Notes under the pieces: model-generated
Databases searched by the model: none
Seen by the model: the letters and a program-made list of their open reading frames with translations, nothing else
What the model was told of the DNA's origin: nothing
Made by a program: the position numbers and the translations under genes
Virus record (IMG/VR): IMGVR_UViG_2541047680_000004
From: a virus
Taxonomy: Duplodnaviria; Heunggongvirae; Uroviricota; Caudoviricetes
Strand: one strand, 5' to 3'
DNA: 64,000 bases
Shown: piece by piece, positions 15,858 through 51,358 of the stretch
Layout: each line of letters opens with the position of its first letter
Numbering within the stretch: position 1 is the stretch's first letter

Positions 15858-16521
15858 AATGGATCACACCGTCGGCAAAATAATTCCGACGCGCATTACA
15901 GGCGTCATAACGTTTTGTGCAGTAATCCGCACCAGACATAGACGTCTGCTGGTTATTTTTGTCGAAATATGGACCGGTATAGCCGCATTCTGGCCCTCGG
16001 TATTTCCACGGGCAGGTGTTTTTAATGATCTGACGATACGGCAGTTGCACCCCCATCAAATCGAACACACTGGACAATTCAAACTCGACAACCTGATGAG
16101 TTTCGAGAGTTTTCTGTTCGATAAACCACATTTCATCCGGGAAATGTTGGTTTGGATCTGCTGTTGGGTTGCCGTCTTTAAAATTAACGGCATCGAGGAA
16201 GCGAGCCAGCGTCATCTTGCGAATAATGCGGCAGCCAACAAGATCGTCGTTCGCCTGAACTTCCGCAGAGACGGTTCCGGCAAAGTTCGATACCTGAATT
16301 TTTGGACGTGGCAACGTTCCCTGGCCAGTTTTGTCAAAGCCTGATGCTTTGATTGGCCACGGCTCGTATGTCACTCCTTGCCAGACGACCGGTTGCATCA
16401 GTTCGTTTGTTCCGGCGTGGAAGAATAGCTTCCCCCCTGAAGTTGTGTTCGACATATCCAGTACGAACAACTCAATGAGTGCAGAGGGAGATAAGCTCTG
16501 AATATCAGCTTTAATTCCCAT
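15823..16521 (-). CDS. minor tail protein (lambda L-like)
   Basis: cysteine motif CPWKYRGPECGY comparable to lambda L; start set at MGIKAD with RBS AAGGA. Confidence 0.8.
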   Translation of the reverse strand: MGIKADIQSLSPSALIELFVLDMSNTTSGGKLFFHAGTNELMQPVVWQGVTYEPWPIKASGFDKTGQGTLPRPKIQVSNFAGTVSAEVQANDDLVGCRIIRKMTLARFLDAVNFKDGNPTADPNQHFPDEMWFIEQKTLETHQVVEFELSSVFDLMGVQLPYRQIIKNTCPWKYRGPECGYTGPYFDKNNQQTSMSGADYCTKRYDACNARRNYFADGVIHFGGFIGATRYG

Positions 16522-46210: not shown

Positions 46211-48244
46211 TTACTTAACCTGGTGGCCAGGTTTAGCACCAGCATCCGGGCTTAACAGGAAGATATCTTTCCCGCCGGGGCCAGCAGCCATCACCATGCC
46301 TTCAGAGATACCGAAGCGCATTTTACGCGGAGCCAGGTTAGCCACCATAATTGTGTGACGACCAATCAGTGCCTGTGGGTCTGGATAAGCAGAACGGATG
46401 CCTGAGAAGACATTACGCTTTTCACCACCGAGATCCAGCGTCAGGCGCAGCAGCTTGTCAGAACCTTCAACAAACTCTGCGTTTTCAATCAGCGCCACGC
46501 GCAGGTCAACTTTAGCGAAGTCGTCAAAGGTGATGGTTTCCTGAATCGGGTCGTCTGCCAGTGGGCCAGTTACCGGTGCGGCTGTGGCTTTCACTTCTTC
46601 TTTGGATGCTTCCACCAGTGCTTCCACCTGTTTCATATCGATACGGTTATACAATGCCTTGAACGGATTCACTTTATGGCCCAGCAGCGGTTGCTGGATA
46701 CCATCCCAGGTCAGTTCTGTATTCAGGAATGCTTCTGCACGTTCAGTCAGTTTCGGCAGTACCGGTTTCAAGTAAGTCATCAGCACGCGGAACAGGTTAA
46801 TGCCCATAGAGCAAATCGCCTGCAGATCGGCATCGCGTCCTTCCTGCTTCGCCACCACCCACGGAGCCTGTTCATCAACATAGCGGTTAGCCAGGTCAGC
46901 CAGTGCCATGATTTCACGGATAGCTTTACCAAATTCGCGGCTTTCCCATGCTTCGCCAATCACTTCAGCGGCATCAGTAAAGGTTTTGTACAGTTGCGGG
47001 TCAGCCAGTTCGCTTGCCAGCACGCCGTCAAAACGCTTGTTGATAAAGCCTGCATTACGGGAGGCCAGGTTAACCACTTTGTTCACGATATCGGCATTCA
47101 CGCGCTGAACGAAATCCTCCAGGTTGAGATCGATATCATCAATGCGCGAAGAGAGTTTCGCAGTGTAGTAGTAACGCAGGCTGTCGGCGTCAAAATGATT
47201 CAGCCAGGTGCTGGCTTTAATAAAGGTACCGCGAGACTTAGACATCTTCGCGCCGTTCACCGTCACATAGCCATGAACAAACAGGTTGGTCGGCTTGCGG
47301 AAGTTGCTGCCTTCCAGCATTGCTGGCCAGAACAGACTGTGGAAGTAAACAATATCTTTACCGATGAAGTGGTACAGCTCGGCGGTGGAGTCTTTCTTCC
47401 AGTATTCATCGAAGCTTACGCTGTCGCCGCGCTTGTCGCACAGATTCTTGAAAGAACCCATATAGCCAATCGGCGCATCTAGCCAGACGTAGAAATATTT
47501 ACCCGGCGCGTTCGGAATTTCAAAACCGAAATACGGCGCGTCGCGGGAGATATCCCACTGTTGCAGGCCAGATTCAAACCACTCCTGCATTTTATTTGCC
47601 ACCTGCTCCTGCAACGCACCGCTGCGGGTCCATGCCTGCAACATTTCGCTGAAAGAGGGCAGATCAAAGAAGAAGTGTTCAGAATCACGCATTACCGGCG
47701 TAGCGCCAGAAACCACCGATTTCGGCTCGATCAATTCAGTCGGGCTGTAGGTCGCGCCGCAGACTTCGCAGTTATCGCCGTATTGATCCGGGGATTTACA
47801 TTTCGGGCAGGTGCCTTTCACAAAACGATCCGGCAGGAACATGCCTTTTTCCGGGTCGTACAACTGAGAGATAGTGCGATTTTTAATAAAACCGTTCTCT
47901 TTCAGGCGAGTATAGATAAGCTCAGACAACTGACGGTTCTCTTCGCTGTGCGTCGAGTGATAGTTGTCATAGCTGATGTTAAAGCCTGCGAAATCAGTCT
48001 GGTGTTCCTGACTCATTTCGCCAATCATCTGCTCCGGTGTGATACCAAGTTGCTGTGCTTTCAGCATGATCGGCGTACCGTGGGCATCGTCGGCACAGAT
48101 GAAATTAACCTCGTGGCCGCGCATTCGCTGGTAACGAACCCAGACATCAGCCTGGATGTGCTCCAGCATATGGCCGAGGTGGATTGAGCCGTTAGCGTAC
48201 GGCAGCGCGCACGTCACCAGAATTTTCTTCGCGACTTGGGTCAT
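46211..48244 (-). CDS. metG: methionine--tRNA ligase
   Basis: 677 aa from [25 protein letters not shown] (HIGH-type) with KMSKS; C-terminal tRNA-binding domain; near-identical to enterobacterial MetG as I recall it. Confidence 0.97.
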
Positions 48245-48401
48245 AGTAGGCATTACTTCTTTGTAGTGAAAAGGGGCTTGATAGTAACAAAATGGCCTTA
48301 TGTCTGCCATGTGATAACAGCATTTCTCATAAATGATTAAATGTCGCAGCTGGAGTACACTACAAGGCGACAATTGCGCAAATTAAAATAAAGGAGACGG
48401 G

Positions 48402-49502
48402 ATGAGCGAGTCCAAATCGCCGGATGCCCTGAGAGCAATGGTAGCCGGTACGCTGGCTAATTTTCAGCACCCAACCCTGAAACACAACCTGACTACGCTT
48501 AAAGCGTTACACCATGTTGCGTTGATGGATGACACACTGCATGTCGAACTAATCATGCCTTTCGTGTGGAATAAGCCTTTTGAAGACCTGAAAGAGCAAT
48601 GTAGTGGTGATCTGCTCCGTATCACTGGCGCAAAGGCTATTGACTGGAAGCTGTCGTACAACATTGCCACGCTTAAGCGCGTCAAAAACCAACCAGGCAT
48701 TAATGGTGTTAAGAATATTATCGCCGTAAGCTCAGGCAAGGGCGGTGTAGGCAAATCGTCCACAGCAGTAAACTTGGCACTGGCTTTGGCTGCTGAAGGT
48801 GCGAAAGTTGGTATTTTGGATGCCGATATCTATGGTCCATCAATTCCAACCATGCTGGGCGCGGAAAACCAACGTCCAACCTCACCGGACGGTACTCACA
48901 TGGCACCTATCATGTCTCATGGCCTGGCAACCAACTCTATTGGTTATCTGGTCACCGACGACAATGCAATGGTGTGGCGTGGACCGATGGCCAGCAAGGC
49001 GCTGATGCAGATGTTGCAGGAAACACTGTGGCCTGATCTGGACTATCTCGTTCTCGATATGCCGCCGGGCACTGGTGATATTCAATTGACGCTGGCGCAG
49101 AACATTCCTGTAACTGGTGCGGTTGTGGTAACTACGCCGCAAGACATCGCGCTGATCGATGCGAAGAAAGGCATTGTGATGTTCGAAAAAGTCGAAGTGC
49201 CGGTACTAGGTATCGTCGAAAACATGAGTGTGCATATTTGCAGTAACTGCGGTCATCACGAGCCAATTTTTGGCACCGGTGGCGCACAGAAACTGGCCGA
49301 GAAATACAACACGCAGTTGTTAGGCCAAATGCCACTTCATATCTCTCTTCGTGAAGATCTGGATAACGGAACACCAACCGTTATTAGTCGTCCAGATAGC
49401 GAATTTACGGCTATTTATCGTGACCTCGCAGATCGCGTTGCTGCCCAAATGTATTGGCAAGGTGAAGTAATACCTGGCGAAATCGCATTCCGCGCAGTGT
49501 GA
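48402..49502 (+). CDS. apbC: Fe-S cluster carrier ATPase Mrp/ApbC
   Basis: P-loop SSGKGGVGKS, CxxC motif (CSNCGH); divergent from metG as in E. coli. Confidence 0.95.
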   Translation: MSESKSPDALRAMVAGTLANFQHPTLKHNLTTLKALHHVALMDDTLHVELIMPFVWNKPFEDLKEQCSGDLLRITGAKAIDWKLSYNIATLKRVKNQPGINGVKNIIAVSSGKGGVGKSSTAVNLALALAAEGAKVGILDADIYGPSIPTMLGAENQRPTSPDGTHMAPIMSHGLATNSIGYLVTDDNAMVWRGPMASKALMQMLQETLWPDLDYLVLDMPPGTGDIQLTLAQNIPVTGAVVVTTPQDIALIDAKKGIVMFEKVEVPVLGIVENMSVHICSNCGHHEPIFGTGGAQKLAEKYNTQLLGQMPLHISLREDLDNGTPTVISRPDSEFTAIYRDLADRVAAQMYWQGEVIPGEIAFRAV

Positions 49503-49539: not shown

Positions 49540-49929
49540 CTACATCACAGGACAATCATCAAACTCGCCACTTCTTGCGTCGTTGATAATGTGAGTGATC
49601 ACACCAAACACGGCATTGCTGCCCGTGCATCCATCATCATCCTTTGGCAATGCTTCCTTCTTACCAGTTCTTAAATCCTCCAGATGCTGACGTGGATACT
49701 TCCGGTATCTTTTTACGCGATATTCCCCATCCAGAGCACATACAAGAAGAGATCCATCAACAGGAGTCAGTGAGGAATCGACCACCAGCAATGCACCCTG
49801 CAATATTCCCTCACGATGATGACTATCAGCCGCCCTCATGAAGTAGGTCGCTGAAGGATGTCTAATTATCTGCTGATCAAGAGAAATACGGCTCTCAGCA
49901 TAATCCGCCGCAGGAGAAGGGAAGCCCAT
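49540..49929 (-). CDS. UmuD'-like S24 peptidase-fold protein (HumD-like)
   Basis: begins MGFPSPAADY, aligning with UmuD from the RecA cleavage site onward; Ser (ADSH) and Lys (RVKR) positions conserved; in-frame TAA 15 nt upstream of ATG; RBS AAGAGG. Confidence 0.85.
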   Translation of the reverse strand: MGFPSPAADYAESRISLDQQIIRHPSATYFMRAADSHHREGILQGALLVVDSSLTPVDGSLLVCALDGEYRVKRYRKYPRQHLEDLRTGKKEALPKDDDGCTGSNAVFGVITHIINDARSGEFDDCPVM

Positions 49930-49945
49930 AATACTCGCCTCTTAA

Positions 49946-49965
49946 TGCTGTATATGCATACAGTA
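49946..49965. promoter_or_regulatory. LexA (SOS) box
   Basis: TGCTGTATATGCATACAGTA = CTGT-N8-ACAG, 16 nt upstream of the UmuD'-like start. Confidence 0.8.
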
Positions 49966-50260
49966 TATGTTGAAGCTATATATTTTTGAACTCTATCTCT
50001 TAAAAAAGATGTTAATAAGATGCTAACTATTGAAAGGCATAAATATATACAATTCCAACAAACGTTATTTTTAACAAATTTTTACTTCCCATTGACTTTC
50101 CCAGACTCCTTGTCTGAACTAATGTCCGCGGAAACCACTTTTTCCTTTACGAGTTATCCACAAAGTTATGCACTTGCACATAGTCTCTATAAATCCTATC
50201 TTAATTCGCAAGACACTGATGTTGCGGTATTGTGGGTACATTTGGTTAAAAACGGACATT

Positions 50261-50293
50261 AAAAAAGCCCAGTTGACTAGGCTGGGCTTTTTA
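50261..50293. terminator. bidirectional rho-independent terminator
   Basis: AAAAAAGCCCAG..CTGGGCTTTTT. Confidence 0.65.
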
Positions 50294-50299
50294 AAAGGA

Positions 50300-50716
50300 A
50301 ACAGAGTTTGCGCCTCTGTTCCTGAGCCATAAGTATCTGGCGACTGAGCTAAGATTAACCGAATGTACTGGATTCATCAAGAAACGTTGAGCCGTCATGC
50401 TAGGTAATAATGACCATTTACCAAACATCGTTGTTCTCAAAGAAGATTTAAGTCCAGGTTTTTGGTGACTCTAAAACCTTACCTTAACTCGAAATCGTGC
50501 CGTAAGTATCTGGCGACTACAGATATTGCAACTGCAAAGGCAAGCTCAAAGGTATTTGCAGCTAGGTGCGATAAAACTAAGTGAGGCCTATAGTGCTTAA
50601 CTTACTTTTCAAAATCGTGCCGCCTATGTTCGCAATCATCGAAGCGATCATTGAGTACGTCAACCAGCGCCCATAATGCTAGTTGTTACCGGCCCCATCC
50701 AAATGGGGCCATTTTA
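50300..50716 (+). ncRNA. candidate structured noncoding region / small RNA locus
   Basis: ORF-free; direct repeats TAAGTATCTGGCGACT (50330, 50503) and AAATCGTGCCG (50492, 50612); hairpins; plus-strand terminator GGCCCCAT..ATGGGGCC then ATTTTATTG at 50690-50716. Confidence 0.25.
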
Positions 50717-50725
50717 TTGTATTGA

Positions 50726-51358
50726 CTACATACTTTCTGATCTAATTGAGTTGTTCACTGCTCTGGCAATTTTCTCCCGCAATTGCTGCGTTCCGTGGTA
50801 CTGAACCGCAATATCCCGCAACTCATTCACCAGTTCTCTAATCTGGTGATCTTTAAGCTCATTATTTGGGTGATGGGCAACAACTCTGGTTAATTCACCC
50901 TTGTCTTTTGCTCTTACGTATGCAGCTCTTGTGCATTCGACCCATGTATTACCGCCTACATTAACTTCGTAGATTAGGCTGGACTTATCTGTCAATTCGG
51001 AACAAATACGGGCCGTGGTCTGGCAACTAGAGCATTCGCAGTTATCGCGGAAACCGTGATCTACCGGTCGAGAAAGAGGTTTAACTTTTTCATCCAACTT
51101 CATCACAGCATCGTGATAAGCGTTCCAGCCGTCATCTTTACCAAGTTGATAAATCTCTGAAGGCTCCATGTAGTCTATATCGCAACCTTCTTCATCTGAT
51201 CTATCTGGTCGTTTCCCTGGTAATCGTTCATAAAAACGATTTCTGTCTCGACGTTCGGCTCTCAGTGCTAACGCAAGAAGTTGCTCAAGCGAGGTATTTG
51301 CACCAGCAATAATTTCATTGAGAATATCTTCTGTGAGATCTTTCGCTACCGTGCTCAT
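50726..51358 (-). CDS. hypothetical protein
   Basis: 210-aa ORF with Cys cluster CECSSCQ. Confidence 0.4.
   Translation of the reverse strand: MSTVAKDLTEDILNEIIAGANTSLEQLLALALRAERRDRNRFYERLPGKRPDRSDEEGCDIDYMEPSEIYQLGKDDGWNAYHDAVMKLDEKVKPLSRPVDHGFRDNCECSSCQTTARICSELTDKSSLIYEVNVGGNTWVECTRAAYVRAKDKGELTRVVAHHPNNELKDHQIRELVNELRDIAVQYHGTQQLREKIARAVNNSIRSESM

Follow-up and report, generated by a model that had tools for sequence, protein, structure and literature searches.

We describe a two-gene cassette in a 64,000-nucleotide (nt) stretch of viral DNA (IMG/VR record IMGVR_UViG_2541047680_000004; the whole of this stretch is called the window), which belongs to an SSU5-like E. coli phage-plasmid of ~110 kb. 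The cassette pairs a gene for a 27-residue hydrophobic peptide with a predicted divergent gene for a small RNA (sRNA), and we read it as an sRNA-repressed toxic-peptide module, i.e. a toxin-antitoxin (TA) system of type I, from a new family unrelated in sequence to the named families (probability roughly 0.7). The narrower claim, that an sRNA is here linked to a small membrane protein, is very probably right. The analysis yielded complementarity between the two predicted RNAs, concerted evolution of the complementary segments, a wobble asymmetry in their mismatches, the fold of the sRNA, conservation of its promoter and terminator, a coding signature in the peptide open reading frame (ORF), and mobility of the cassette.

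The segment 49900-50800 shares 99.8-100% identity with 14 plasmids of 108-116 kb (e.g. NZ_CP027358), and 90-94% with the phage-plasmid Cyrano (pLF82) and with CMS-2020a. Cyrano, which E. coli LF82 carries, is classed as SSU5-like (PMC9928086); the corresponding locus lies around 88,441-89,340 in its record OV696614 and at 81,120-81,581 in pLF82 (NC_011917). A search pattern derived from conserved leader motifs retrieved 2 genome contigs and 34 IMG/VR contigs, and the collected set comprises 35 distinct cassette sequences with 21 distinct combinations of the two repeat copies described below. Coordinates of all features are collected in Table 1.

Concerted evolution of a 20-nt direct repeat

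The 16-nt sequence TAAGTATCTGGCGACT occurs twice in the cassette, 173 base pairs (bp) apart, and each copy extends to a 20-nt block, GCC(A/G)TAAGTATCTGGCGACT, in which 19 of 20 positions match. Copy 1 lies at the predicted start of the sRNA, and copy 2 lies in the leader of the peptide mRNA, 65 nt upstream of the Shine-Dalgarno (SD) sequence and 75 nt upstream of the start codon. No third copy was found in the 64-kb window with up to 3 mismatches allowed. The pair goes beyond chance, being present and co-varying in all 21 distinct locus types. Within each version the two copies are alike, both carrying GTTGTTAACCGGCGAC in the Klebsiella version, GTATGTGTCTGCCAGC in the Kosakonia version, GTAAAACACTGGCGAC in locus L014, ATCCGG in L007 and GGCAGC in L005.

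The residual differences between the copies are of one kind. In a block defined without regard to mismatch type there are 14 internal mismatches at 5 sites, all of them either A in copy 1 and G in copy 2 or C in copy 1 and T in copy 2, with no reverse transition or transversion among the 14. These are the only changes that would preserve pairing, as G:U, between an RNA antisense to copy 1 and an RNA carrying copy 2. The asymmetry is the pattern expected of RNA pairing, and would not be predicted of sites for a shared DNA-binding protein.

Concerted change of two direct repeats would also be expected of protein-binding sites, and two backbones have a rep gene within 1-1.3 kb of the cassette, so that operators or iterons for a plasmid-encoded DNA-binding protein have to be considered. 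We judge this explanation improbable, since the 14/14 asymmetry is specific to RNA pairing and copy 1 coincides exactly with the predicted 5' terminus of an RNA that covaries and bears a terminator. In addition, every version has exactly two copies, 152-179 bp apart and without dyad symmetry, whereas iteron or operator arrays usually have at least three repeats beside a rep or regulator gene, and the replicon types that carry the cassette are unrelated, with differing neighbours and without a DNA-binding gene in common.

Returning to RNA pairing, the predicted duplex in the window comprises 20 bp including one G:U pair (-38.6 kcal/mol, compared with -18.1 ± 3.0 kcal/mol for shuffled seeds). 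Across versions, the cognate duplexes range from -39 to -55 kcal/mol over a computed complementarity of 20-29 nt. For the divergent Klebsiella and Kosakonia seeds, the preference for the cognate target amounts to at least 8-13 kcal/mol; most of the remaining seed classes cross-pair. By these computations, the RNA predicted from copy 1 would base-pair with the linked peptide mRNA.

A second repeat, the 11-nt AAATCGTGCCG, has its two copies at 50492-50502 and 50612-50622, with a spacing of 120 bp, and can be extended to a match of 13/14; no further copies were found in the 64-kb window. Its second copy coincides with codons K-I-V-P of the peptide ORF. We estimate the post-hoc chance of any 11-mer repeat within 460 bp at ~2-3%. 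In relatives the match decays to 5-9/11 without concerted changes, and the third codon positions of the ORF copy drift (GTG to GTA, CCG to CCT) without the leader copy following. With its decayed match and lack of co-evolution this repeat was rejected as a functional pair, and is treated here as chance or residual similarity; the leader copy is relevant only since the sRNA pairing of relatives extends into its CGTGCC. An earlier note on this DNA, made from the sequence alone, had reported both repeat pairs. Both exist at the spacings it gave, the first being longer than reported; this first pair co-varies among locus types, and the 11-nt pair does not.

The predicted sRNA

From 5' to 3', the predicted minus-strand sRNA has a single-stranded seed, a single internal hairpin and a U6-tailed Rho-independent terminator. 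Its putative promoter is found in every relative, with TTGAAG, TTGATG or TTGTAG as -35, a spacer of 17 nt, and TAAGCT, TAATCT or TAAGAT as -10, always at the same distance from the seed. Because of this conserved spacing, transcription is predicted to start at ~50345, the first base of the complementary block. A generic sigma-70 scan missed the promoter because its -10 matches the consensus at only 3/6 positions. At the other end, the hairpin at 50262-50295 receives a terminator score for the minus strand and is also followed by a T-run on the plus strand, in keeping with the bidirectional terminator that the earlier note placed at the border of the region. The minus-strand T-run after the stem is present in all relatives, the plus-strand one only in the E. 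coli group.

The sRNA fold was computed on 19 distinct sequences. In the consensus fold 96.8% of cells are paired, and 7 pairs have changed on both sides; the covariation score was reached by 0/500 shuffles, and slid controls pair at 27-66% only. Covariation analysis, one of the checks that the earlier note had proposed, bears out the sRNA stems. Judged by its G:U pairs, the fold suits an RNA from the minus strand better, with 329/340 cells paired, compared with 301/340 on the plus strand. From these features we infer the transcript itself, and from the promoter spacing its 5' end.

The earlier note had proposed a small-RNA locus and had likened it to the antisense-RNA immunity regions of P1-like elements. 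The first idea is supported, by the comparative evidence for the ~85-nt minus-strand sRNA, with the difference that the region is also coding and that the predicted target is the leader of a peptide gene. The second fares worse. The c4 RNA of the P1/P7 immI region is likewise a short antisense RNA on a plasmid-prophage that recognises short repeated elements. It is excised from the transcript that also contains its target sites, upstream of icd/ant, and controls an antirepressor; pairing within one transcript would show as inverted repeats. In the present cassette, by contrast, the repeats are direct and not inverted, which implies transcripts from opposite strands, and the target is the mRNA of a 27-codon ORF that terminates right after this ORF, with no antirepressor or rep gene downstream. 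A permissive Rfam scan of 49900-50900 returned nothing meaningful; the best match, on the sRNA interval, was RNAI (24 bits against a cut-off of 47, E = 0.054), and no Rfam family, of the c4 type or any other, reached its gathering score here. Readings of the locus as P1-type immunity or antisense control, or as an RNAI/CopA-type antisense RNA that controls replication, could draw on this sub-threshold match and on the P1-like humD neighbourhood, but are rendered even less probable than DNA-binding sites by the differences just listed and by the presence of the cassette on conjugative plasmids that are neither P1-like nor phage-like.

The peptide gene

Downstream of repeat copy 2, the plus strand carries a 27-codon ORF, ending in TAA at 50674-50676, which contradicts the earlier description of the region as ORF-free. 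The ORF and its SD sequence are conserved in all relatives, and Cyrano and most others use an ATG start. Variable sites are distributed over codon positions 1/2/3 as 15/6/22, a coding-type substitution pattern. The peptide has a grand average of hydropathy (GRAVY) of 0.86, with 16/27 hydrophobic residues and a polar tail, and across versions the peptides have 25-30 residues and are hydrophobic with a polar or charged C-terminus. Such a product has the size and character of the small proteins of type I systems, which have fewer than 60 residues and usually form a single hydrophobic helix. On other plasmids a paralogous peptide, M(QM)LLLFLKLAHPVAVIIMTLLGYWKDR, either replaces this ORF or precedes it in tandem on the same mRNA; the two peptide types align without gaps.

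Against 1.84 billion representatives, HMMER recovered just two real relatives; these clusters come from viral metagenome-assembled genomes (MAGs) and are only labelled 'hypothetical' or 'uncharacterized protein'. A third match, to a 1482-residue protein, had no aligned stretch and was discarded. No paper was found for the peptide or seed strings, and in the literature on type I TA systems of phage-plasmids and plasmids no description of this locus was found. The locus is also without annotation in all ~200 records examined, including the curated Cyrano/pLF82 genome, and is absent from the list of expressed prophage genes in the Cyrano paper (morons; the toxin genes KacT, RelE/ParE and HicAB; PMC9928086).

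This lack of annotation, and the resemblance of the 11-nt repeat to chance or to a residue of coding sequence, might suggest an unremarkable intergenic or 3' untranslated region (UTR), with repeats arising by chance or from a decaying duplication and with a spurious small ORF. The earlier note had named an unremarkable 3' UTR with non-conserved repeats as the outcome that would speak against its proposal. We regard this as the least probable of the explanations considered, given that the cassette is conserved to ~68% identity over six or more genera and that the repeats change in concert, the stems show compensatory changes and the ORF shows coding-type substitutions.

The leader and ends of the predicted peptide mRNA

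The 5' end of the peptide mRNA is placed where strong conservation begins abruptly, at CCAGG (50454), in all relatives; the sequence upstream is variable and AT-rich. A consensus fold of the leader was built from 10 single-ORF versions and contains three hairpins (Table 1). In the first of these, the loop motif TTGGTGA was invariant in the 10 plasmid and phage-plasmid sequences that had been aligned before its use as a search anchor. Its GGUGA is complementary to the 3' end of 16S rRNA, and a role of the UUGGUGA loop as a ribosome standby site is speculation. The invariance of CUGCAAA/UUUGCAG in the second hairpin provides covariation evidence neither way. In the third, 50579-50585 pairs with 50601-50607, and with mostly one-sided changes there is moderate support for sequestration of the ribosome-binding site by this hairpin. 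The mRNA would end at a plus-strand intrinsic terminator (50691-50710 plus T-run), confirming the one named in the earlier note; the relatives shown likewise have a GC-rich stem-loop after the ORF stop, followed by a T-run that varies.

The leader also contains a 40-codon ORF. Many relatives have an ATG inside the target (GAATGTATC), which is absent from three seed classes, this window included. Coupling of control to toxin translation in the manner of hok/mok is only a minor alternative because the start, frame and stop of this leader ORF are not conserved among relatives. In one lineage (P0002, L015-type loci) the leader ORF and the peptide form an in-frame fusion, which was annotated by a MAG pipeline as a 56-residue protein.

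Further upstream, the relatives L013, L028, L037, L004 and L020 have 2-4 tandem copies of T(G/A)GAACGGTT with a ~10-nt period. The copies lie between the sRNA promoter and the leader, in the part aligned to ~50385-50445 of the window, where the E. coli version has only AACGTT-like remnants. They may form a regulator-binding array for the toxin promoter.

Distribution and mobility of the cassette

Among 5426 complete E. coli genomes the locus is present in 115 and absent from 5311, and 106 of its 116 places are on plasmids. The other 10 matches are chromosomal (e.g. NZ_CP117006 3855835-3856296, NZ_AP027512, NZ_CP190018), which points to integration of either the phage-plasmid or the cassette. 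Plasmids of Citrobacter and Enterobacter (85-99 kb), a Klebsiella IncFIB conjugative plasmid of 261 kb, and MOBF conjugative plasmids from Kosakonia and from Enterobacter carry more distant copies, with ~68-82% identity. Homology spans the interval from the left hairpin (the sRNA terminator) to the right, mRNA terminator, with the same boundaries on at least 5 different plasmid backbones. Because these boundaries are kept while the flanking genes differ between backbones, the cassette is a mobile unit whose two genes are inherited together.

A partial match was seen on an 89-kb plasmid of E. coli CH468 (NZ_JBRBPZ010000006, 16066-16198), which has 82% identity to the leader only (window 50455-50586). 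The Enterobacter locus L004 matched the same span, and the CH468 match may be a divergent full cassette of the L004 type.

Comparison with known type I systems

In architecture the cassette is closest to tisB, zorO and shoB, having a divergent, non-overlapping sRNA with ~18-21 nt of complementarity to a long 5' UTR (given the predicted mRNA 5' end). With tisB/istR-1 the cassette as predicted shares a hydrophobic peptide of fewer than 30 residues, a long structured leader with a sequestered ribosome-binding site, and a divergent sRNA of ~75-90 nt whose 5' part is complementary over ~20 nt to a far-upstream leader site. The distance from target to ribosome-binding site is 65-75 nt here and ~100 nt in tisB (PMC7708055). 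Unlike tisB/istR-1, the cassette is mobile and carried by plasmids or phage-plasmids rather than chromosomal, some versions have two paralogous peptide ORFs, and neither peptide nor RNA has sequence similarity to the TisB family or the IstR model (Pfam, NCBIfam, Rfam). The LexA-controlled toxin promoter of tisB also has no counterpart. A search for CTG-N10-CAG over 49901-50800 found no LexA box inside the cassette, the sole occurrence being the humD box, and because the module lacks such a box it is not considered to be under SOS control.

The zorO/orzO and zorP/orzP loci of E. coli O157 similarly combine divergent sRNA and toxin genes. OrzO pairs within the 174-nt zorO 5' UTR, which itself inhibits translation (PMC5397157). 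ZorO is a hydrophobic peptide of 29 residues, and the sequence-specific toxin/sRNA pairs occur as paralogous sets. The sequences are unrelated to those described here, the present locus is mostly on plasmids, and the ORF is duplicated within one mRNA instead of the whole locus being duplicated. In shoB/ohsC and dinQ/agrB, too, separately encoded sRNAs have short complementarity to the toxin leader. Their toxins are single-helix peptides of 26-27 residues, and the primary transcript is translationally inert (PMC5066626, PMC8309996). These systems again differ in being unrelated in sequence and chromosomal, and dinQ is LexA-regulated. Comparison with Pfam, NCBIfam, PHROGs and Rfam gave no membership in ZorO/OrzO, ShoB/OhsC, DinQ/AgrB, Ldr, Ibs, Hok or SymE. 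Because it is absent from 5311/5426 E. coli genomes, the locus is none of the core chromosomal systems.

Plasmid carriage is shared with the par locus (fst, RNAI/RNAII) of pAD1 and with hok/sok of R1, both of them type I systems acting in post-segregational killing. In par, direct repeats in the DNA that are transcribed from opposite strands supply the RNA-RNA pairing (PMC8309996). The leader ORF mok of hok/sok links control to translation of the toxin; here a leader ORF lies over the target in some versions and, in the window, ends on the SD sequence. The par RNAs are convergent with a shared terminator and Sok overlaps its target in cis, whereas the present genes are divergent and non-overlapping, with no cis overlap predicted. 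No Hok or Fst homology was found in Pfam or NCBIfam.

Proposed mechanism and its alternatives

We propose that a plus-strand mRNA (~50452-50718) with a ~140-nt structured leader encodes the 27-residue hydrophobic peptide (50593-50676), its SD sequence being held in a local hairpin. The divergent, separately encoded sRNA (minus strand, 50345 to 50261, ~85 nt) would pair through its first 20 nt with 50499-50518 of the leader. Pairing this far upstream of the ribosome-binding site would keep a membrane-active peptide untranslated, by blocking a standby or activation site, by triggering cleavage of the duplex, or by both, as in IstR-1/tisB and OrzO/zorO. On a phage-plasmid the cassette would probably pay off through post-segregational killing that maintains the element, or by excluding other elements or defending against them. 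Production of both RNAs, their exact ends, the toxicity of the peptide and the manner of its repression are all predictions.

Several observations weigh against this proposal. The peptides have no match in Pfam, NCBIfam (E<=10) or PHROGs, the copy in the window starts with GTG and not ATG, and no convincing conserved sigma-70 -35/-10 pair was found for the peptide mRNA in the window or its relatives. Most leader stems are invariant, so that covariation gives weak support to the leader fold, SD sequestration included. Finally, with a leader ORF lying over the target in some versions, repression could differ from the standby-site model.

The alternative that deserves most attention, though we think it unlikely, is a regulatory pair with a non-toxic peptide, e.g. 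a small membrane regulator, or a superinfection-exclusion factor, made in doses that the sRNA adjusts. All of the RNA and ORF evidence fits it equally well, and the peptide has no homology to any proven toxin. Toxicity is preferred since the small size, the hydrophobic helix with a polar tail and the long structured leader form the recurring signature of type I toxins, to which a dedicated linked antisense RNA, tandem paralogous ORFs and plasmid carriage also belong (PMC8309996, PMC8594479). A dedicated linked antisense RNA is rare for non-toxic small membrane proteins.

Neighbouring genes and other features of the element

The local gene order is metG (-), apbC/mrp (+), humD, an 80-codon ORF, the cassette and a 210-codon gene. 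The earlier note placed the region beside an SOS-controlled gene, which is loosely right: humD, with its LexA box, is nearby, and the 80-codon ORF stands between it and the repeats. Comparison of LexA boxes, Rfam matches and gene context found no link of the cassette to SOS or to P1-type immunity. The bidirectional terminator, on its plus-strand side, marks the end of the 80-codon ORF, for which the RefSeq plasmid records have no annotation.

Full-length metG (methionyl-tRNA synthetase) and apbC/mrp genes occupy 46211-49502 and are conserved in Cyrano and related plasmids; a tRNA synthetase is unusual on an SSU5-like phage-plasmid. CYRAN_99 (apbC, annotated there as MinD) is listed among the genes expressed in lysogens (PMC9928086). 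The segment 49928-50178 has ~81% identity to the P1/P7 region upstream of hot (upfN/upfO) and contains two DnaA-box-like sequences (TTATCCACA at 50154-50162 and TTATGCACT at 50166-50174). According to the P1 annotation, a piece of the upfN/upfO region is 94% identical to E. coli chromosomal DNA, and some part of the 49900-50800 query matches 5423/5426 E. coli genomes, nearly always at 80-90% identity. At gathering thresholds, Rfam returned for the whole window only the IS10 antisense RNA RNA-OUT (RF00240, 63830-63899, minus strand, 98.8 bits), which marks an IS10/Tn10 end in the element.

Table 1. Features of the cassette and its surroundings, in window coordinates.
Feature	Position	Strand	Remarks
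humD/S24 peptidase gene	49540-49929	-	LexA box in front
LexA box CTGTATATGCATACAG	49948-49963		in front of humD, as in P1 humD/lxr
80-codon ORF	50020-50259	+	full-length match to phrog_28987, E = 1.5e-39
Predicted sRNA terminator	50261-50292	-	U-tail; in the E. coli version also plus-strand terminator for the 80-codon ORF
Predicted sRNA, putative antitoxin, ~85 nt	50345->50261	-	based on fold and on promoter and terminator conservation
Predicted sRNA internal hairpin	50297-50323	-	minus-strand sequence GGAACAGAG...CUCUGUUUCC; helices 1 and 2 show compensatory changes
20-nt repeat, copy 1, GCCATAAGTATCTGGCGACT	50326-50345		reverse complement is the predicted 5' seed of the sRNA
Predicted sRNA promoter	50352-50380	-	-35 TTGATG (50380-50375), 17-nt spacer, -10 TAATCT (50357-50352)
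Predicted peptide mRNA	50452-50718	+	~140-nt structured leader, 27-codon ORF, terminator; 5' end inferred
5' leader hairpin	50456-50479	+	loop UUGGUGA (50462-50468); pair 7-30 covaries (GC 6, AU 4)
Leader ORF, 40 codons	50462-50584	+	overlaps the sRNA target, stops on the SD sequence
11-14-nt repeat, first copy	50489-50502		in leader, directly 5' of the target block
20-nt repeat, copy 2, GCCGTAAGTATCTGGCGACT	50499-50518	+	predicted sRNA target site in leader
Leader hairpin CUGCAAA...UUUGCAG	50532-50561	+	stem invariant in consensus fold
Predicted SD hairpin	50579-50607	+	AAGUGAG (overlaps SD GAGG) pairs with CUUACUU, codons 3-5; consensus fold
SD sequence GAGG	50583-50586	+	upstream of GTG at 50593
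Small ORF, 27 residues, MLNLLFKIVPPMFAIIEAIIEYVNQRP + TAA, putative membrane toxin	50593-50676	+	GTG start; conserved
11-14-nt repeat, second copy	50609-50622		codons 6-10 (F-K-I-V-P) of the small ORF
Intrinsic terminator of peptide mRNA	50691-50716	+	stem 50691-50710, then T-run
210-codon hypothetical gene	50726-51358	-	convergent to the locus

Significance

Under-annotation of type I systems is severe, since both of their genes are tiny and sequence conservation does not extend from one family to another. On balance we lean, with less confidence than for the module itself, towards a wider interpretation, namely an unrecognised family of type I TA cassettes that SSU5-like phage-plasmids and conjugative plasmids of Enterobacteriaceae exchange, with one or two tandem paralogous toxin ORFs per sRNA and several seed/target specificity classes (at least three with low predicted cross-pairing), and that would contribute to plasmid-prophage maintenance or to competition and exclusion between related elements. 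The concept of the type I mechanism would be unchanged by this cassette. E. coli LF82 transcriptomes exist (PMC9928086). If the proposal is right, the cassette would provide a compact new family of membrane-active peptides, as well as a natural series of co-varying seed/target pairs bearing on sRNA specificity and on cross-talk between co-resident plasmids. It would also mean an additional role, in maintenance or defence, for E. coli phage-plasmids of a clinically common family that often carry extended-spectrum beta-lactamase (ESBL) genes.

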